From Escherichia coli (GTDB lineage Bacteria > Pseudomonadota > Gammaproteobacteria > Enterobacterales > Enterobacteriaceae), in assembly GCF_003334335.1 (NCBI RefSeq), contig NZ_QOWQ01000011.1: DNA of 64,000 bases; one strand, written 5' to 3'. How positions within the stretch are numbered: the first letter of the stretch is position 1; each line of letters starts with the position of its first letter. Below, piece by piece: positions 12,541 to 62,084 of the stretch. A model generated the notes under the pieces. It saw nothing but the letters and a program-made list of their open reading frames with translations, did not search any database and was not told where the DNA came from. The translations under genes and the position numbers were made by a program.

Positions 12541-12637
12541 CCTGATGCGCTACGCTTATCAGGCCTACATTTTCTCCGCAATATATTGAATTTGCGCGGT
12601 TTGTAGGCCGGATAAGGCGTTCACGCCGCATCCGGCA
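12541..12637. repeat. Composite REP unit (two opposed REP palindromes around a shared spacer)
   Basis: CCTGATGCGCTACGCTTATCAGGCCTAC ... CAATATATTGAATTTGC ... GTAGGCCGGATAAGGCGTTCACGCCGCATCCGGCA. Confidence 0.85.
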
Positions 12638-13823: not shown

Positions 13824-13883
13824 AAAGTGTGGATGGTAAAAATCTCATTTACACGCTAGTATCGGCATAACCACTAAACACTC

Positions 13884-13998
13884 TAGCCTCTGCACCTGGG
13901 TCAACTGATACGGTGCTTTGGCCGTGACAATGCTCGTAAAGATTGCCACCAGGGCGAAGGAAGAAATGACTTCGCCTCCCGTATCTGGAAAGGTGTAC
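13884..13998 (+). ncRNA. Moco (molybdenum cofactor) riboswitch-like leader of moaA; boundaries approximate
   Basis: A conserved Moco RNA motif is known directly upstream of moaA in E. coli. Placed by position; I did not check the fold. Confidence 0.5.
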
Positions 13999-14988
13999 AT
14001 GGCTTCACAACTGACTGATGCATTTGCGCGTAAGTTTTACTACTTGCGCCTGTCGATTACCGATGTGTGTAACTTTCGTTGCACCTACTGCCTGCCGGAT
14101 GGCTACAAACCGAGCGGCGTCACCAATAAAGGCTTTCTTACCGTCGATGAAATTCGCCGGGTTACGCGCGCCTTCGCCAGTCTGGGCACCGAAAAAGTGC
14201 GCCTGACAGGAGGAGAGCCGTCTTTACGCCGCGACTTTACCGATATCATCGCCGCTGTGCGGGAAAACGACGCTATCCGCCAGATTGCGGTCACAACCAA
14301 TGGTTACCGTCTGGAACGCGATGTGGCGAGCTGGCGCGATGCGGGACTTACTGGCATTAACGTCAGTGTCGACAGTCTGGACGCCCGCCAGTTTCACGCT
14401 ATTACCGGGCAGGATAAATTCAACCAGGTCATGGCAGGGATTGATGCTGCATTTGAGGCCGGTTTTGAGAAGGTCAAAGTCAATACCGTGCTGATGCGTG
14501 ATGTTAATCATCACCAGCTCGACACCTTTCTGAACTGGATCCAGCATCGCCCTATCCAGCTGCGTTTCATCGAACTGATGGAAACGGGCGAGGGCAGCGA
14601 GCTCTTCCGTAAGCATCACATCTCTGGTCAGGTTCTGCGTGACGAGCTACTGCGTCGCGGCTGGATCCACCAATTACGTCAACGCAGCGACGGTCCCGCG
14701 CAAGTCTTTTGCCATCCAGATTACGCCGGAGAGATTGGCCTTATCATGCCGTATGAAAAAGACTTCTGCGCCACTTGCAACCGCCTGCGCGTTTCCTCCA
14801 TTGGTAAACTCCATCTCTGCCTGTTTGGTGAAGGCGGCGTTAACCTGCGCGATCTGCTGGAAGACGATACCCAGCAACAGGCGCTGGAAGCGCGTATTTC
14901 AGCGGCGCTGCGGGAGAAGAAACAGACCCATTTCCTGCATCAAAACAACACCGGTATTACGCAAAACTTATCGTACATTGGCGGCTAA
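13999..14988 (+). CDS. moaA: GTP 3',8-cyclase (radical SAM)
   Basis: Start set at [31 protein letters not shown] (329 aa). Confidence 0.95.
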
Positions 14989-29244: not shown

Positions 29245-29341
<97 letters not shown>

Positions 29342-34494: not shown

Positions 34495-34617
34495 CTGGAC
34501 GTAGCGTAAACGCCTGATCCGTCCAACGGTTCGGATTTTGTAGGCCTGATAAGACGCGGTAGCGTCGCATCAGGCATCTGTTGCCGGATGCGGCGTAAAC
34601 GCCTTATCCGTCCTACG
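34495..34617. repeat. REP cluster between ybiC and ybiJ
   Basis: Several REP palindromes (GTAGGCCTGATAAGACGCGGTAGCGTCGCATCAGGC, CCGGATGCGGCGTAAACGCCTTATCCG). Confidence 0.8.
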
Positions 34618-42435: not shown

Positions 42436-42586
42436 GACTCCTCCAGTGAGAAAATAGAGCAAAAAGATAAGTATAGATGCTGGAGGAGGGGCGATTTTAA
42501 ATGAGAGGAATCTGGTGTGCCTCCCTTTCGGGTGAAAGGGAGGAAGGGATATTAAGCAGGTTGCTGACAACGTGCGGGCTTTTTTG

Positions 42587-54571: not shown

Positions 54572-54670
54572 CCTGATGCGCTACGCTTATCAGGCCTACG
54601 CAGTACCTGCAATATATTGAATCTGCAGGACTTTGTAGGCCGGATAAGGCGTTAACGCCGCATCAGGCAT
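54572..54670. repeat. Composite REP unit, third copy in the same orientation as 12541-12637
   Basis: Same architecture and spacer (CAATATATTGAATCTGC). Confidence 0.85.
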
Positions 54671-54750: not shown

Positions 54751-56016
54751 TCAAACATCCATGCCCAACGCTCGCTTACCGTGAATGTTGAGGTCGGCAA
54801 GCGTAAAGCGTCCTTCCCAGTTTGTTTCATAGTCCTCGCGCGGGAAGTCGCCCGGTGATGCGCCTTTTTCCAGTGCGGCCTTCACCTTGTGCGCGTAGGC
54901 AAGATTTTTCTCGCACATCGGTGCCGCAGGAATGTACATCACGTTGCCCCAACCTTGTTGATTTTCAACGGGGGCAACGGAATGGATGACGTCGCAGTGC
55001 CACCAGACGGAGTCTCCGGCTTCGAGTTTTGGAATGCTGGTTAACGCCTCAATCAACAGTGGATGCCATTGCTCTGATACCGGCAATACTCTTCCGGGCG
55101 CTACGCCGCACAGTTCATCCTCCGGCACATCATCAAGCAGCGGACGTAACAGTACGTACGCCATAGCTTCAGGAATGGGCACGACGTGCAGCAGCCCCTG
55201 ACCAGGCAGCATATCAGAGAGCGCTGTCCAGCCCTGGAATGTCCGAAACACGGAACATTTGGTGGTGTTGTCCACCGTGTACTCTTCAACTTCCGTACGA
55301 TGTGCCGCATGCCAGGGATCATATTGCGCCAGATTGCCATTAAAGACGTTGGCGAAAACGCGCTGATACGCTGGAAGCAGCCAGCGTTCCAGTGCCCCGG
55401 AGTCGGTATGCGCTCCAAGACCTTTGGAGGTCGTTCCGGGCGGACGGCGGCGGATACGGTCAGGGTAGATGACGCTCACATCCGGGTTAAACCATTGCTT
55501 TCCATCACTTTCAAATGTCCACAGACGATTGAGAAACGACTGCGCATTCGCCATTTCTTCACTCTGGCGGGCCTGCATTTGCGCCTGCGACCAGTAGATG
55601 GGGTAAATCTCGGGACGTGAAGCGCTGAGCGTCCCGAAGAAATTATCGCCGGGGCCTTTGTAGACCTCGTCAAAGCGGTTGCGGTCCAGATAGTCCAGCA
55701 TCGACTGATCCCAGCCTAGCGCTTGTTCGCGGGGGAAATGGCCTTTTATCACCGCACAACCGCGACGTTTAATCTGTTCGCGCTGCTCTGCAGTAACATG
55801 ACCTGCTTTGATATCGGCATAAGACAGCACCGGCCAGACGGTATCGCCCTGTGCTTTGAGTGCGTTGATTTCAGCCACTCGCGTGGCAATGTCATCGCTT
55901 AGCTGATTAAAGATCTGCTGGACGTCGCCAAGCTGCGCCCGCAGCGCGTGCTTCATCTGACGGATAGCTGCTTTGTGATCGGCAGGCAATGTGTCGCTGG
56001 TAAAAGTAGAAGCCAT
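54751..56016 (-). CDS. ybiU: DUF1479-family protein
   Basis: Start set at MASTFTSDTLPADHK (421 aa). Confidence 0.88.
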   Translation of the reverse strand: MASTFTSDTLPADHKAAIRQMKHALRAQLGDVQQIFNQLSDDIATRVAEINALKAQGDTVWPVLSYADIKAGHVTAEQREQIKRRGCAVIKGHFPREQALGWDQSMLDYLDRNRFDEVYKGPGDNFFGTLSASRPEIYPIYWSQAQMQARQSEEMANAQSFLNRLWTFESDGKQWFNPDVSVIYPDRIRRRPPGTTSKGLGAHTDSGALERWLLPAYQRVFANVFNGNLAQYDPWHAAHRTEVEEYTVDNTTKCSVFRTFQGWTALSDMLPGQGLLHVVPIPEAMAYVLLRPLLDDVPEDELCGVAPGRVLPVSEQWHPLLIEALTSIPKLEAGDSVWWHCDVIHSVAPVENQQGWGNVMYIPAAPMCEKNLAYAHKVKAALEKGASPGDFPREDYETNWEGRFTLADLNIHGKRALGMDV

Positions 56017-56167
56017 AACCACCTCTCATTAACTTTCATTCGAAACCATTCTGATTTGCATGTGACAATATAAGTTATAAATAAGTTAATGCAAGTTTAA
56101 TGATTTGATGTGATGTACAGGATGTAAAAAGAAGGGAAAACCGGAGCGCACGGCTCCGGTAGAGAGG

Positions 56168-56983
56168 TCAGCTGTTAAAAGGGGATGTGTTATCCAGCAC
56201 CGCCTGAATCACATTCAGCGCGCCTTCATGATTATTATCATCGGTAGCGTAACGGGCGATTTGTTTAATGTTTTCCGCAGCATTGCCCATCGCAAAGGAA
56301 TAACGCGCCATTTTCAGCATCTCCGCATCGTTACCGCTGTCGCCAATCGCTACCACATTTTGCGGTGACAGATCCCAGCGTTTCAGTAACCGCGAAATAC
56401 CGTTTGCTTTATGTAGACCGGGAATAATCAGGTCGATAAAGCCAAAACCACTGGTAACGGGTTTCATAATGCCATCGAGCGCTACGTGCAGTTTGTCGAT
56501 CACTAACGGGATTTGTTCATCCGGCAGGTTGAGCGAAAACTTGAACAGTACGTCGTCAATCTCCTGATAATCTTTTACAGGTTTCAGGCGATGGTAGTGT
56601 TTTGCCATCAGTGCGACAAATGCTTCGGGGGCATTTTCGCTGACATATGCACTTTGCAGACCGCAGGCGACAAAATTGAGTTGCTTATCTTTTAGCAACT
56701 CGCCAATAACAATCCGCGATTCATGTCGGGTCAGTTCGCCGTGGAACAACTGCTTGCCATGTTCGTAAACCAGTGCGCCGTTTTCCGCGACAAAAGAGAT
56801 CTCATCCTTTAGCTCAGGAAAGAATGAAATAAGCTGGTAATACTGATTACCGCTGGCAACAACGAACTTAATGCCGCGCTTTTTCAGTTCCTGATATTGC
56901 GCCATAAAACGTGGTTGGTTGTACGTTTTGGCGTCGTTAAGAAAAGTACCGTCCATGTCTGTGACGATAACTTTTACGCTCAT
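56168..56983 (-). CDS. ybiV: HAD-superfamily (Cof-type) sugar phosphatase
   Basis: 271 aa, N-terminal DMDGT motif. Confidence 0.92.
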
Positions 56984-57128
56984 AGGTGTGCTCCTGGCTC
57001 GAAAATGAAACCGTAACAGTGTAATAACAATGTGACGCAGAGCACAAATTATATTTCGAATGAAAGTAAGGATGAAATTGATGATGTGAATGATTTAGCC
57101 CGGCGACGACGCCGCCGGGCCGAGGAGA

Positions 57129-59561
57129 TTACAGCATATGTTCAGTACGGGCGATGATATCGTCCTGAGCGTCTGGAGAGAGCGCGGTGAAGAACGCGGA
57201 ATAGCCCGCGACACGCACTACCAGATCGCGATACTGATCGGGATGTTTTTTCGCATCCAGCAGCGTTTCGCGGGAAACGATGTTGTACTGAATATGCCAG
57301 CCTTTATGCACTTCAAAGAAGGTACGCAGCAGGATCATCAGTTTCTGCTTGTCAGATTCGTTCTCCAGCGTTGCCGGATTCAGTTTCTGGTTGAGCAACA
57401 CGCCGCCGAGAATCGCTGCCGTAGGCAGTTTACCCACTGAGCCAATGACCGCAGTAGGGCCAAGATGGTCAGTACCGGAGGCCGGGCTTGCGCCTTCTGC
57501 CAGCGGGGTGTGGGCTTTACGCCCGTCCGGTGTTGCCATAGTCTGCGCGCCAAACGGTACGTTAGCGGAGATTGATGACGTACCCGCGTAATAGTTGCCG
57601 CCAACCGGACCACGACCGTAGCGCGGATTATGGTACTGTTTCAGTTCGTCGATATAGGTCTGATAAGCGCGAGCCAGCAGCGTATCGACAGTATCATCGT
57701 CGTTGCCGTACTTCGGCGCACCGTTAATCAGCCGCTGACGCAGCTGCTCGTGAGTCAGGCCGTCGAAGTCATCTGCCAGTGCGGCAGCAAGCTGTTGCTG
57801 ACCAATCGCACCTTGTTCAAACACCAGTTTCTTCACTGCCGCCAGGCTGTTGCCGAGGTTGGCAATGCCGACCTGCAGGCCAGAAACCCAGTCATATTTC
57901 GCGCCGCCTTGCTTGATACTTTTCGCTCGCTCAATACAGTCATCCACCAGCGCCGAGCAGAGAATATCGTGCACGTTCTCTTCCAGCATGGTGTCGACGA
58001 CATATTCGATTTCGATTGATTTGCGGGTGTAGTAACGGATTTGCGTATCCCACGCGTCCATCACTTCATCGAAGTTGTTGAAGTTACCTGCCGACAACGC
58101 TTTTTCTTGTGGCAGGAACACTTTGCCGCTGGTGGCATCATGCCCGCCTTCCAGCGCCGCCAGCATCACGCGGGCGAAGTTGATAAAGCTCATGCCGGTA
58201 CAGCGATAGCCCCATTTGCCACCGACGGCGGTTTCTATACAACCAATCGCTGCGTAGTCATAAGCGTCCTGCGGTTCAATACCGAGTTTAATAAATTCCG
58301 GGATCACGATTTCGTCGTTGTTGAACGCCGGCATCCCGAAGCCGCAACGGATCACCTGTACGCAGGCGTCGAGGAAATCGTTGCTCATTCCTGCATGGTA
58401 ACGCACGCTGAGGTTAGGCTGAGTGGAACGCAGGCGACCGCAGGATTCGAGGATCGCGTAAGAGAGTGGATTCACCGCGTCCATTGGTTGACCATCAACC
58501 AGATTTTGCCCGCCAATAGTGACGTTCTGATACAGCGGACTTCCCGCAGAGGCTTTTGAGTGTGAGCCGGAGCGGATCTTGTTCACTTCCAGCAGTTTCA
58601 GCCAGCAGCTATGCAGCATCTCGATGGCGTGTTCGCGATCCAGCGTCTGGTTGAGTTCAACGTCGCGGCGATAGTACGGGTAGAGATACTGGTCCATACG
58701 ACCAAACGATACTGAGTGACCGTTAGATTCGATCTGCAAAATCAACTGGATGAAGTAACACAGTTGCAGCGCCTGCCAGAAAGTCTGCGGCGGCTGGTGG
58801 GCGATAAGATCGCAGTTTTCTGCCATCGCCAGCAGTTCATCGCGACGGCTTTCGCGGGTTTCGGTCGCGGCCATTTCACGCGCCAGGGCAGCGAAACGTT
58901 CAATGTGTTCACTGACTGCCACCAGCACGATATCAATCGCTTTCAGGAATTGCTCACCGTGTAAATCTTCCAGCACCGTCAGGTTGATGCGCGAGCGACG
59001 TTCCGCTACTTTCTCGCGCAGACCATCAAGCCCTTTTTCCAGCAGCAGCGGGAAATTCACCGCCAGGTGCGCATCGCCGGAGGTCATATTGCCTTCCGCT
59101 TTAATGATTCCGGTCGCCAGCAGACCTTTTTGCTCATCGGTAAACATGCCGTAGCAGCGATCCTGTACGGTCTGACCGCGCCACCACGGGCACACTTCAT
59201 GCAGAACGCGTTTGTTCTCTTCGCTCACCGCAAAGCCAGCACCGGGACGATCTGCCAGATCATCAATCTCTTTTTCGATCCACGAGACAGTATATTCCGG
59301 GAAGATCGGCGCGGCGCGAACTTCGCTTGCCTGGTTGCCAATGATCAACTCATCGTGTTTGATCCAGATGGTGCGATTCGCCAGGTGATGCGCCAGTGCC
59401 AGCGCGCGACGTACCGGGATCGGCTTATCGAGATGTTGTTGATACATCTCGGTATAGTGCTGCGCGCGCTCGGTACAGACTGGCGGTTTCACAATATGCA
59501 CCAGCGCATTTTTGTGCGCTTTAATGCGGTCGCTGAGCGTGTCCAGTTTCAGTGTGGTCAT
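57129..59561 (-). CDS. ybiW: Pyruvate formate-lyase-like glycyl radical enzyme
   Basis: 810 aa; C-terminal glycine-radical region (...RVAGYSAFF...). Confidence 0.93.
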   Translation of the reverse strand: MTTLKLDTLSDRIKAHKNALVHIVKPPVCTERAQHYTEMYQQHLDKPIPVRRALALAHHLANRTIWIKHDELIIGNQASEVRAAPIFPEYTVSWIEKEIDDLADRPGAGFAVSEENKRVLHEVCPWWRGQTVQDRCYGMFTDEQKGLLATGIIKAEGNMTSGDAHLAVNFPLLLEKGLDGLREKVAERRSRINLTVLEDLHGEQFLKAIDIVLVAVSEHIERFAALAREMAATETRESRRDELLAMAENCDLIAHQPPQTFWQALQLCYFIQLILQIESNGHSVSFGRMDQYLYPYYRRDVELNQTLDREHAIEMLHSCWLKLLEVNKIRSGSHSKASAGSPLYQNVTIGGQNLVDGQPMDAVNPLSYAILESCGRLRSTQPNLSVRYHAGMSNDFLDACVQVIRCGFGMPAFNNDEIVIPEFIKLGIEPQDAYDYAAIGCIETAVGGKWGYRCTGMSFINFARVMLAALEGGHDATSGKVFLPQEKALSAGNFNNFDEVMDAWDTQIRYYTRKSIEIEYVVDTMLEENVHDILCSALVDDCIERAKSIKQGGAKYDWVSGLQVGIANLGNSLAAVKKLVFEQGAIGQQQLAAALADDFDGLTHEQLRQRLINGAPKYGNDDDTVDTLLARAYQTYIDELKQYHNPRYGRGPVGGNYYAGTSSISANVPFGAQTMATPDGRKAHTPLAEGASPASGTDHLGPTAVIGSVGKLPTAAILGGVLLNQKLNPATLENESDKQKLMILLRTFFEVHKGWHIQYNIVSRETLLDAKKHPDQYRDLVVRVAGYSAFFTALSPDAQDDIIARTEHML

Positions 59562-59566
59562 GGTTG

Positions 59567-60466
59567 TTATCCTCGTAAGGTCGCGGTTAACCCTTTCTGG
59601 CAGGCATACTGCTGGGCAAAGTCGAGCAGTTCTGGCGCATCAAGCGGTTTTTCCGGGGCGTCATAGGGCAGATTAAGTAAGTGATATTTGTTGATGCCCA
59701 GCGTGTGGTAGGGCAGAAAATGAATTTCGCCAACGTGCAGCTCGTCGGCGGCAAAATCGGTAATGGCTTTTACAGAGGTTTCGTCGGCATTAAAGCCCTG
59801 AATCAGCGGCACGCGGATAATGATTTTTTTGCCCGCTGCGGCGAGTTTTTTCAGGTTATCCAGCACTCTGGCGGCGTTACCGTCGGTCCACTGTTTAAAC
59901 GGCGCGTCGGCAACGTGTTTTAAATCGGCAAGAAACAGATCGATATAGGGCAGAGAAGGGGCGATATATTTCCACGGCACATGCAGACAGGTTTCTACCG
60001 CAGTATGAATGCCTGCCTCGTGGCTGGCTTGCAGTAGCGCCATCGCCATTTCCGGCTGCATAAAGGGCTCACCACCCGAAAGCGTTAAACCGCCGCCGCT
60101 GCGATCGTAAAACGGTTTATCGCGCAGAACGGTCGTCATGATCTCCTCAACGCTTTTCACTTCACCACACACGGTTAATGCCTGTGTCGGACAGCAGTCG
60201 GTTAACGCCGTCAGATGCTCCGGGGTTAACTTTTCCCGATGAATAAGCAAACCATTCAGCGCGCGCTCAATCACTTCCGGCGCGGCCTTAGCGCACAGCT
60301 CGCAGCCTTCCAGACACAGTCGTGCGTCATACAGCAGATCCTGCGTGCGGGCGCGGCTTTCCGGGTTCTGACACCAGCGGCAGCCCAGCGAACAGCCTTT
60401 AAGAAATACGACCGTGCGGATACCGGGGCCATCATGGGTCGAGTAGCGCTGAATATTGAAAATCAT
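59567..60466 (-). CDS. ybiY: Glycyl-radical enzyme activating protein (radical SAM with extra ferredoxin-like cysteine clusters)
   Basis: Start set at [36 protein letters not shown]. Confidence 0.9.
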
Positions 60467-60596
60467 AGTTGCCTCTCTATTTCGTTCAAGCATTAAAATA
60501 CTTTCGAATGAAAGTTAGATTGATGTGCGTCAACTGTTCAGAGAGTTTTCCCGTGATAGTCTACATTCAGACAAAAAGTACATTTTGAGGATGGTT

Positions 60597-61259
60597 ATGG
60601 AACTGTATCTGGATACTTCAGACGTTGTTGCGGTGAAGGCGCTGTCACGTATTTTTCCGCTGGCGGGTGTGACCACTAACCCAAGCATTATCGCCGCGGG
60701 TAAAAAACCGCTGGATGTTGTGCTTCCGCAACTTCATGAAGCGATGGGCGGTCAGGGGCGTCTGTTTGCCCAGGTAATGGCTACCACTGCCGAAGGGATG
60801 GTTAATGACGCGCTTAAGCTGCGTTCTATTATTGCGGATATCGTGGTGAAAGTTCCGGTGACCGCCGAGGGGCTGGCAGCTATTAAGATGTTAAAAGCGG
60901 AAGGGATTCCGACGCTGGGAACCGCGGTATATGGCGCAGCACAAGGGCTGCTGTCGGCGCTGGCAGGTGCGGAATATGTTGCGCCTTACGTTAATCGTAT
61001 TGATGCTCAGGGCGGTAGCGGCATTCAGACTGTGACCGACTTACACCAGTTATTGAAAATGCATGCGCCGCAGGCGAAAGTGCTGGCAGCGAGTTTCAAA
61101 ACCCCGCGTCAGGCGCTGGACTGCTTACTGGCAGGATGTGAATCAATTACTCTGCCACTGGATGTGGCACAACAGATGATTAGCTATCCGGCGGTTGATG
61201 CCGCTGTGGCGAAGTTTGAGCAGGACTGGCAGGGAGCGTTTGGCAGAACGTCGATTTAA
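60597..61259 (+). CDS. fsaA: Fructose-6-phosphate aldolase 1
   Basis: Start set at [30 protein letters not shown] (220 aa). Confidence 0.93.
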
Positions 61260-61334
61260 CCGGACGTTCTGCATCCTCATAAATTGCTGATGACGTGGCG
61301 GAGTGCCGCGTCTTATCAGGCCTGGAGGTGGCAA

Positions 61335-62084
61335 TTACTGCCCACACACCTCACACCCCGGATTACGCATCAGTTTCATTTCGCGAAACTGACAGGTCAT
61401 CGCATCGTACATGACGATTTTCCCGCTGGCCGGTTTGCCATAACCTGCCAGCATTTTGATCGCTTCCATTGCCTGCAACGAACCAATTACGCCGATCAAC
61501 GGTGCCATTACGCCTGCTTCCACGCAGGTTAATGCATTTTCACCAAACAAACGGCTAAGGCAGCGATAGCACGGTTCACCGTCCTGATAAGTAAAGACGG
61601 TGATTTGACCTTCCATACGAATTGCCGCGCCGGAAACCAGCGGTACCTTCGCGGCAAAACAGCCTGCGTTCAGTTGATTACGTACCGCAACGTTATCCGT
61701 ACAGTCGAGCACCAGATCGTGTTCAGCAATCAATGCTGCAAGTTCTGCGTCATCCAGCAGTGCATTGACTGGCGTAATCGCGATATGTGGGTTGATCCGC
61801 GTCAGGGCGTCACGGGCGGATTCCACCTTCGGTTGCCCGACCGTGGCATCACTGTGCAGTGTCTGGCGTTGCAGATTCGAGAGCGAAACCGTGTCGAAGT
61901 CGAGCAGCGTCAGGTTACCGACACCGGCGCTTGCCAGATACTGCGAGGCTGCACAGCCGAGGCCGCCCAGGCCCACTATCAGCACGCGAGAATCTTTCAG
62001 CGCCTCCTGGCCGTCAAAATCAAAGCCGCGCAGAATGATTTGCCGGTTGTAGCGCAGCATCTCCTGATCGCTGAGTTCCGCCAT
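61335..62084 (-). CDS. moeB: Molybdopterin-synthase adenylyltransferase
   Basis: 249 aa, ThiF/MoeB fold, C-terminal CxxC pairs. Confidence 0.95.
   Translation of the reverse strand: MAELSDQEMLRYNRQIILRGFDFDGQEALKDSRVLIVGLGGLGCAASQYLASAGVGNLTLLDFDTVSLSNLQRQTLHSDATVGQPKVESARDALTRINPHIAITPVNALLDDAELAALIAEHDLVLDCTDNVAVRNQLNAGCFAAKVPLVSGAAIRMEGQITVFTYQDGEPCYRCLSRLFGENALTCVEAGVMAPLIGVIGSLQAMEAIKMLAGYGKPASGKIVMYDAMTCQFREMKLMRNPGCEVCGQ

Follow-up and report, generated by a model that had tools for sequence, protein, structure and literature searches.

The ybiY-ybiW pair lies on the minus strand of a 64,000-nt stretch of Escherichia coli DNA that was analysed as a whole (hereafter, the window), between ybiV and the divergently oriented fsaA. 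ybiW (57129-59561) encodes a glycyl radical enzyme (GRE) of 810 residues, and ybiY (59567-60466) encodes its radical-SAM activase of 299 residues. Both genes are intact, and 5 nt separate the stop codon of ybiY from the ATG of ybiW. The ORF listing of the window gave the same bounds for the 810-aa frame on the minus strand and a longer, 308-aa version of ybiY (59567-60493, minus strand). The RefSeq start at 60466, which yields the 299-residue protein, is preceded by the Shine-Dalgarno sequence GAGAGG, and an in-frame ATG further upstream occurs in only two of 80 related species. The RefSeq names across the region are ybiV, ybiW (glycyl radical protein), ybiY (glycyl-radical enzyme activating protein), the divergent fsa, and moeB.

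By megablast, E. coli chromosomes matched the locus at 100% identity, and all complete E. coli genomes (5426 of 5426) carried the 6-kb region. The adjacency of ybiY and ybiW was preserved in all 80 enterobacterial species (80/80), with fsaA divergent from ybiY in 67 of the 80. ybiW, ybiY and the flanking genes are real genes, with chance ORFs excluded, and the pair is an ordinary one for E. coli that was already known.

The neighbouring genes contribute to the interpretation. ybiV (56168-56983, minus strand) encodes a Cof-type HAD sugar phosphatase, as named by RefSeq and NCBIfam, and is co-regulated with ybiYW. Beyond it, ybiU (54751-56016, minus strand) encodes a Gig2-like (DUF1479) protein with a conserved H203-x-D205 … H340/H345 motif. 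On the other side, the divergent aldolase gene fsaA (60597-61259, plus strand) was called by RefSeq and by NCBIfam (451 bits, cut-off 306). A preliminary description of this DNA had named the pair ybiW/ybiY, flanked it with fsaA and ybiV, and read it as a pyruvate formate-lyase (PFL)-like enzyme with its radical SAM activase. RefSeq, Pfam and NCBIfam agree on the gene identities, the 60466 end is the RefSeq start of ybiY, both flanks were located as given above, and the enzyme-activase relationship is borne out by the family scores and intact catalytic motifs described below.

A GC-rich hairpin of 11 bp (57097-57121, minus strand; -22.5 kcal/mol, z = -5.0) lies 10 nt past the ybiW stop codon and is devoid of a U-tract; it could act as a transcript stabiliser or a partial terminator. 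An Rfam scan of the whole window gave no match inside the ybiY-ybiW locus.

Catalytic motifs and relatives of YbiW and YbiY

YbiW matched the Pfam PFL-like domain over residues 11-671 (E 1.3e-208) and the Gly_radical domain (E 2.7e-32), and it scored 1410.9 bits against NCBIfam TIGR01774 (PFL2-3; cut-off 678). The glycyl radical motif RVAGYS (residues 783-788) fits RVxG[FWY] and places the radical on Gly786. The Cys loop IGCIET is intact, with Cys441 and Glu443, and aligns with the Cys loop IGCVEP of glycerol dehydratase. The C-x-E arrangement, with one Cys and a Glu at +2, is that of the dehydratase/eliminase branch of GREs. Moreover, His165 of YbiW aligns with His164 of glycerol dehydratase. 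The comparison with characterised GREs, which the preliminary description had recommended, finds Gly786, Cys441, Glu443 and His165 all fitting, together with a dehydratase-type Cys loop.

YbiY matched the Pfam families Radical_SAM and Fer4, as well as NCBIfam TIGR02494 (PFLE_PFLC; 370 bits, cut-off 174). Its SAM-cluster motif CSLGCRWC (CX3CX2C) is intact and comprises Cys25, Cys29 and Cys32. A Cys-rich, ferredoxin-like insert carries Cys51, Cys55 and Cys58, and Cys91, Cys92 and Cys100, which are predicted cluster sites; Fer4_13 matched weakly at residues 54-98. An insert of this type appears to match those of non-PFL GRE activases.

The best-scoring functionally distinct relatives of YbiW were the B12-independent glycerol dehydratase of C. 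butyricum (PDB 1r8w, 549 bits) and propanediol dehydratase (5i2a, 509 bits). YbiW has in common with these enzymes the Cys-x-Glu loop, the His that corresponds to His164 and the ESNGHS motif, and their chemistry is of the same type, i.e., radical elimination of an oxygen substituent beside a hydroxylated carbon. However, the substrate of YbiW is a phosphorylated cyclic ether whose ring oxygen leaves, so that the ring opens and no water is lost. The YbiW region aligned with residues 440-450 of glycerol dehydratase also differs and contains a gap.

PflB and PflA have the superfamily fold and radical-SAM activation in common with YbiW and YbiY. YbiW is named 'putative pyruvate formate lyase' in K-12 and carries the Pfam PFL-like domain, which would suit a second pyruvate or 2-ketoacid formate-lyase. 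We give that assignment practically no credence. The PFL match was distant (154 bits, residues 252-806 only, against 549 bits for glycerol dehydratase), and the TIGR01255 equivalog model scored 165 bits where its cut-off is 994. The Cys loop of PFL holds an adjacent Cys-Cys pair, whereas the YbiW loop, Gly-Cys441-Ile-Glu443, has one Cys and a dehydratase-type Glu. The activases differ as well: the ferredoxin-like insert of YbiY (~60 residues) is missing from PflA (245 aa), and the PflA alignment begins at YbiY residue 101.

The closest comparison is with K-12 YbiW, the protein studied by Ma et al. (2024) and deposited as 8id7 and 8yjn. It is the same gene, and the sole difference is the natural polymorphism E184K (nt 59012). 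YbiW of the window matched 8id7/8yjn over its full length at 806 of 810 residues. Besides E184K, the constructs differ at positions 114, 115 and 117, all of which are Ala and were probably engineered. Judging by near-identity, the match to 8id7/8yjn and synteny, we place YbiW in the orthologue group of the K-12 enzyme that cleaves 1,5-anhydroglucitol-6-phosphate (AG6P).

Published substrate and proposed radical reaction

As reported by Ma et al. (JACS 2024, 146:26187; pmid 39283600) and summarised in the review PMC12441222, YbiW converts AG6P to 1-deoxyfructose-6-phosphate. Its paralogue PflD, according to the same summary, forms 1-deoxyfructose-6-phosphate from the C2 epimer, 1,5-anhydromannitol-6-phosphate, and through the pathway E. 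coli can grow anaerobically on 1,5-anhydroglucitol. 1,5-Anhydroglucitol is a dietary sugar analogue, and the ring-opening by YbiW is oxygen-sensitive; of the later steps, the review says no more than that 1-deoxyfructose-6-phosphate is "further metabolized". Our literature search on the AG6P pathway found no further papers beyond this review. The preliminary description had taken fsaA and ybiV as hints of a sugar-derived substrate, and the published AG6P agrees with that expectation. Its other statement, that the pair had no established substrate, is contradicted by the same summary of Ma et al. (2024), which supplies the substrate, the product and a role in growth.

An orphan GRE and activase with a physiological substrate still to be defined therefore seems extremely improbable to us. 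Records and papers of that tenor do exist: in June 2026 the names given by RefSeq and NCBIfam went no further than the subfamily, the K-12 record is likewise generic, Gao et al. (2021) considered the substrates unidentified, and the 2025-26 Reg-Seq preprint calls ybiYW functionally unannotated. Such statements, however, predate or overlook Ma et al. (2024), whose substrate, product and growth phenotype are summarised in PMC12441222, and structures of YbiW have been deposited. ybiYW is no longer an orphan: the literature already covers what the enzyme does, its structures, a growth phenotype and the two transcription factors. What persists is an annotation lag, as the names in RefSeq, in NCBIfam and in the K-12 reference record continue to be generic or misleading. 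Taking together the literature summary, the PDB molecule names and the sequence, we conclude that YbiW is very probably the AG6P glycyl radical enzyme and YbiY its activase, under the control of FNR and YciT.

The reaction can be outlined by analogy. As in other members of its family, YbiY, with one SAM-binding [4Fe-4S] cluster and the ferredoxin-like insert, would cleave S-adenosylmethionine and take a hydrogen from Gly786 of YbiW. The glycyl radical would then generate a thiyl radical at Cys441, again following the family. If the B12-independent diol dehydratases are a valid guide, the thiyl radical would take the hydrogen from C2 of AG6P, with Glu443 serving as the base, and the resulting α-hydroxy radical would expel the C1-O5 ether oxygen. 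The pyranose would thereby open, and return of the hydrogen would give 1-deoxyfructose-6-phosphate; the substrate and product are the published ones, and the radical steps are those expected from the analogy. 1-Deoxyfructose-6-phosphate is said to be cleaved next by FsaA to glyceraldehyde-3-phosphate and hydroxyacetone, the latter reportedly being reduced to 1,2-propanediol by GldA. A radical route starting at C2-H would also mean that the C2 epimer handled by PflD yields the identical product.

PflD (PDB 8yjo, paired with PflC) is 38% identical to YbiW over the full length, and both proteins have the Gly motif and the G-C-x-E Cys loop. PflD is also paired with an Fsa-type aldolase gene, fsaB. 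The pflD cluster is self-contained, with its own PTS components (frwCBD, ptsA), gldA and fsaB, and in this respect the ybi cluster differs. No transporter or kinase gene was found in the ybi cluster; in consequence, the supply of AG6P would depend on a PTS encoded elsewhere.

FNR and YciT at the ybiYW promoter

Upstream of ybiY, an FNR box, TTGACGCACATCAA (60520-60533, minus strand), agrees with TTGAT-N4-ATCAA at nine of ten half-site positions. The supplement of Myers et al. (2013) lists an FNR ChIP-seq peak labelled ybiY/fsaA with the motif TTGATGTGCGTCAA at v2 coordinate 862788, which maps onto this box. Across 78 distinct promoters, the half-sites were at least 90% conserved, whereas the N4 spacer was free to vary. 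The putative -10 hexamer TTTAAT (60492-60497, minus strand) was conserved to at least 90% in the same 78 promoters. If transcription starts at ~60485, the centre of the FNR box falls at -41.5 and its geometry would be that of a class II site. According to the Reg-Seq preprint, the ybiYW promoter is active only anaerobically. A generic scan for sigma-70 promoters and terminators gave no excess of sites over shuffled sequence, and it missed the FNR-dependent promoter. We also observed that an 'unknown activator' footprint in the Reg-Seq preprint coincides with the published FNR site.

The FNR box and the -10 hexamer stand on either side of a palindrome, ACTTTCATTCGAAAGT (60500-60515, minus strand), which was at least 90% conserved in the 78 distinct promoters. 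The 14-mer ACTTTCATTCGAAA, whose ybiY copy follows the FNR box at a distance of 4 nt, occurs in exact form upstream of ybiY, ybiV and ybiU; the three exact copies in the window compare with 0.56 expected. The second copy (57054-57067, minus strand) abuts a TATAAT upstream of ybiV, and the third (56032-56045, plus strand) precedes the ATG of ybiU by 16 nt; ybiU lacks an FNR box. Conservation held for each of the three copies in our survey of 80 enterobacterial species; the core of the ybiV copy was kept in 56 of 58 species and the ybiU copy in 56 of 57.

The palindrome and 14-mer are the probable operator of YciT, a DeoR-type repressor acting at ybiYW (Gao et al. 2021; Reg-Seq preprint). Gao et al. 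found YciT ChIP-exo peaks at the ybi region, and in the Reg-Seq preprint YciT was pulled down on ybiYW promoter DNA by DNA-affinity mass spectrometry. In published RNA-seq of a yciT deletion, the log2 fold changes were +7.7 for ybiY, +7.0 for ybiU, +3.5 for ybiW, +2.2 for ybiV and +1.78 for fsaA, ybiY and ybiU being the two most strongly derepressed genes. Control by FNR and YciT is itself largely published; the occurrence of ACTTTCATTCGAAA at three sites is the addition made here, and it is a small one. With respect to other regulators, operators of the Cra, Mlc/NagC, KdgR, RbsR and IclR types seem unsuited to the palindrome, as their half-sites are in reversed order or differently spaced.

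The published YciT positions do not coincide with ours. After mapping with a genome-version offset of +777, validated by the FNR motif and a ybiO site, the 'ybiV' and 'ybiY' ChIP-exo peaks of Gao et al. fell ~100-170 nt off the palindromes, inside ybiV and inside fsaA. We did not use the ChIP-exo coordinates for operator placement because of this distance. The Reg-Seq authors noted the same 100-nt discrepancy and placed YciT near -5 of their own predicted start, ~18 nt apart from the geometry proposed here. Given the ChIP-exo offset and the Reg-Seq shift, the operator at 60500-60515 and the start at ~60485 remain candidate positions. In the K-12 pflD/frw/fsaB/gldA cluster, ACTTTCATTCGAAA had no match with up to three mismatches allowed, so there is no evidence of YciT control over the pflD cluster.

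Expression of ybiYW would require two signals: a lack of oxygen, relayed by FNR from a putative class II site, and the release of YciT from the palindrome. Combining the three literatures yields a testable picture, in which anaerobic induction by FNR would be gated by a sugar-phosphate-type repressor acting at three conserved candidate operators.

ybiU and the wider YciT regulon

ybiY, ybiW and fsaA have a place in the published AG6P pathway, but the other members of the conserved YciT regulon do not. It could be argued that AG6P is a true substrate in vitro, whereas the main job of the regulon lies elsewhere, e.g., in the removal of a toxic, non-metabolisable sugar phosphate or in the use of another anhydro- or deoxy-sugar, with YbiV and YbiU defining the role. 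ybiU and ybiV have the same candidate operator as ybiYW and are derepressed alongside it, and neither YbiU nor YbiV has an assigned function. In addition, PMC12441222 emphasises the toxicity of AG6P to human cells and is sceptical that the anaerobic colon receives much anhydroglucitol. The same review nevertheless reports that E. coli grows on 1,5-anhydroglucitol, and the conserved pairing with the aldolase fits a catabolic route. We consider such a displaced role very unlikely and retain AG6P catabolism as the function of the pair.

For YbiU, our literature search on the protein and on DUF1479 found no assigned function, and a single-sequence AlphaFold model had a pLDDT of 39. Its His-x-Asp … His motif is a type that Fe(II)-dependent oxygenases use. 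One conjecture, which we regard as unlikely, is that YciT senses AG6P or its product, and that the regulon combines an anaerobic YbiYW-FsaA route with an oxygen-dependent YbiU route, YbiV being a relief phosphatase. The YbiU reaction might, speculatively, be a hydroxylation of AG6P at C1 that gives glucose-6-phosphate directly. If true, one dead-end sugar phosphate would be served by two oxygen-partitioned routes, with the FNR-dependent radical route operating when oxygen is absent.

The ybiW/ybiY locus and its proteins

The window DNA is E. coli chromosome: its 56000-62000 region matched many E. coli genomes with 100% identity and was present in all of the 5426 complete genomes searched (5426/5426). 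One base differed between the window and K-12 MG1655 over the compared interval, 55900-61400 (NC_000913.3 coordinates equal window coordinates plus 803045). Five of the 5429 matching places of this 6-kb region were on records labelled plasmid, at least one E. coli genome held three copies, and one strain (NZ_CP148427.1) carried an insertion of ~100 bp inside the stretch.

The ORF list and the RefSeq annotation agreed on the gene set, with ybiU (54751-56016), ybiV (56168-56983), ybiW (57129-59561), ybiY (59567-60466) and moeB (61335-62084) on the minus strand and fsaA (60597-61259) on the plus strand; the ybiW and ybiY coordinates of the preliminary description were exact. The ybiY ATG at 60466 carries a GAGAGG ribosome-binding site, and an upstream ATG (ORF to 60493) was shared by just two of the 80 related species, so the longer frame is unlikely to be used. 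A GC-rich hairpin lacking a U-tract followed the ybiW stop codon (57097-57121, minus strand; −22.5 kcal/mol, z = −5), and a promoter-like TATAAT of ybiV's own lay ~45 nt downstream of it. Scanning the window with Rfam gave no gathering-threshold match in the ybiW/ybiY locus; the matches at 799-997, 12561-12602, 13867-14011, 29265-29307, 34543-34613 and 54592-54634 comprised IS009, the Moco riboswitch before moaA, naRNA4 and three ES036/CssrF repeats.

YbiW contained the Pfam PFL-like and Gly_radical domains, the glycine radical motif RVAG786YS and the Cys loop IGC441IE443T. The solved structures 8id7 and 8yjn ('Probable dehydratase YbiW') matched it over the full length, followed by 6xs4 (a 95%-type orthologue), B12-independent glycerol dehydratase (GDH, 549 bits), propanediol dehydratase and the E. 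coli paralogue PflD, whereas pyruvate formate-lyase was a distant match (154 bits). Residue 184 is Lys in the window and Glu in K-12 and the crystallised protein (E184K; base 59012). Three further differences from the crystallised construct, which has Ala at positions 114, 115 and 117, look engineered. In YbiY, the radical-SAM motif C25x3C29x2C32 was followed by a Cys-rich insert (C51/C55/C58 and C91/C92/C100), and the alignment with the pyruvate formate-lyase activase PflA began only at YbiY residue 101. NCBIfam (June 2026) assigned both proteins at subfamily level only, YbiY to a glycyl radical enzyme activase subfamily, with no equivalog model above cut-off for either; release 20 held no equivalog model for enzymes acting on the 6-phosphates of 1,5-anhydroglucitol (1,5-AG6P) or 1,5-anhydromannitol (1,5-AM6P). 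The RefSeq names are still 'glycyl radical protein' and 'putative pyruvate formate lyase'. Domains, motifs and RefSeq confirm an intact glycyl radical enzyme-activase pair, with the gene identities as first proposed.

Substrate and proposed radical chemistry

The preliminary description gave the pair no established substrate, a statement that is out of date: the literature, as summarised in a 2025 review (PMC12441222), defines both substrate and role, and the system is already known. According to that summary, Ma et al. identified anaerobic pathways in which a PTS phosphorylates 1,5-anhydroglucitol and 1,5-anhydromannitol, YbiW converts 1,5-AG6P and PflD converts 1,5-AM6P to 1-deoxyfructose-6-phosphate, the reaction requires a glycyl radical, and growth on 1,5-anhydroglucitol is enabled in E. 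coli and many gut bacteria. The earlier hint at a sugar-derived substrate was correct in the light of the 1,5-AG6P activity in the same summary.

PflD is 38% identical to YbiW, and its cluster reads gldA-fsaB-ptsA / frwC-frwB-pflD-pflC-frwD. A divergent fsaA was paired with ybiY in 67 of 80 enterobacterial species. Ma et al. are also said to have described cleavage of 1-deoxyfructose-6-phosphate by FsaA or FsaB to glyceraldehyde-3-phosphate and hydroxyacetone, the latter reportedly being reduced by GldA to 1,2-propanediol. These Fsa and GldA steps are consistent with the genome context of the pflD cluster and with the ybiY/fsaA pairing.

By analogy with the glycerol/propanediol dehydratase branch, a C441 thiyl radical would take hydrogen from C2 of the substrate, the α-hydroxy radical would then expel the ring oxygen at the adjacent C1-O5 bond, and return of the hydrogen would yield an open-chain product with a 2-keto and a 1-methyl group. 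Because C2 turns into a carbonyl, both C2 epimers would give the same product, and a route of this kind would fit the use of YbiW for one epimer and PflD for the other. The analogy is supported by the single-Cys C-x-E loop and the ESNGHS motif, both shared by YbiW and that branch, and by the conserved His of YbiW that aligns with GDH H164.

A putative YciT operator and an FNR box at ybiY

The 14-mer ACTTTCATTCGAAA occurred in three exact copies in the window, compared with an expectation of 0.56 that already tolerates two mismatches, and these occupied three consecutive promoter regions. The copies were located upstream of ybiY in the ybiY/fsaA region (60502-60515, minus strand), upstream of ybiV, abutting the TATAAT (57054-57067, minus strand), and 16 nt before the ybiU ATG (56032-56045, plus strand). 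The ybiY copy formed part of the palindrome ACTTTC-N4-GAAAGT and lay 4 nt downstream of a near-consensus FNR box, TTGACGCACATCAA (60520-60533), with 18 nt between the two centres; the ybiU upstream region had no FNR box. If the candidate −10 element TTTAAT (60492-60497) is used with a start near 60485, the FNR box would be centred at −41.5 and the operator would span −15 to −30. Just downstream of this element, we observed a semi-conserved block (60479-60491, minus strand; consensus CTTCATACGAAAG, E. coli GCTTGAACGAAAT) that is similar to the operator core and may serve as an additional, weaker site for YciT or as an element of the 5′-UTR.

FNR and the DeoR-type repressor YciT are both already published factors at ybiY. 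An FNR ChIP-seq peak labelled 'ybiY/fsaA' was listed by Myers et al. (2013); its motif, TTGATGTGCGTCAA, is given at v2 862788, corresponding to window position 60520. Gao et al. (2021) reported YciT ChIP-exo peaks at the ybiY/ybiV locus and, by RNA-seq upon yciT deletion, log2 changes of +7.7 (ybiY), +7.0 (ybiU), +3.5 (ybiW), +2.2 (ybiV) and +1.8 (fsaA), with derepression strongest at ybiY and ybiU. The Reg-Seq preprint found activity of the ybiYW promoter under anaerobic conditions only. DNA-affinity mass spectrometry in that study identified YciT at a site ~100 nt away from the position given by Gao et al., and the footprint of an activator, unnamed there, lay ~15 nt upstream of the YciT site. 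Since that footprint lies upstream of the YciT site, where the FNR box and ChIP-seq peak are found, we infer that the activator is FNR.

Our mapping reproduced the ~100-nt offset. The ChIP-exo sites at ybiY and ybiV (NC_000913.2 862873-862900 and 858455-858488; window 60605-60632 and 56187-56220) fell within the coding regions of fsaA and ybiV, at a distance of 100-170 nt from the palindromes, and the 'ybiV' peak coordinates held a different palindrome, CTGAATCACATTCAG (~56204-56218). The ybiO site of the same table mapped exactly onto a CTTTC-N4-GAAAG palindrome, CTTTCGGGTGAAAG (42525-42538), upstream of ybiO. Exact CTTTC-N4-GAAAG occurred twice in the 64-kb window, at ybiY and ybiO, against 0.08 expected. 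The palindrome shared with the ybiO site, together with the published YciT data at this locus, suggests that the 14-mer is probably the YciT operator, an assignment that we did not find stated in the literature covered. Our additions are two only: the operator and FNR box are placed to the base, with phylogenetic support, and three separate literatures are linked.

Conservation of the regulon

Among 80 enterobacterial loci (one genome per species, YbiW 85-99% identity), ybiY and ybiW were adjacent in all 80, followed by ybiV in 58 and ybiU in 57. The 14-mer upstream of ybiY was exact in 61/80 and had at most three mismatches in 80/80, and TTGAY-N4-RTCAA began exactly 18 nt upstream of it in ~76/80. 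When 78 distinct promoters were compared, TTTAAT, the palindrome and both halves of the FNR box were at least 90% conserved, with the FNR spacer free to vary. The core TTTCATTCGAAA was also kept at fixed distances upstream of ybiV (56/58) and ybiU (56/57); the pflD cluster contained no copy of the 14-mer.

YbiU and YbiV are members of this conserved regulon too, but the pathway as summarised in the review does not account for them. YbiU is a Gig2-like/DUF1479 protein (PF07350), for which our literature search found no function; its solved structures (2dbi, 2csg, 4rgk, 6akz) are uncharacterised. Its H-x-D ... H motif (H203-x-D205, H340/H345) is kept as far as a Candida protein. One might speculate, at low probability, that YbiU handles the same sugar phosphate in an oxygen-dependent counterpart reaction.

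In ~10 of the 80 species, tblastn (at least 70% length) placed no fsaA between moeB and ybiY, with ybiY-ybiW-ybiV-ybiU kept; eight of those loci had the architecture MoeB YbiY YbiW YbiV YbiU.
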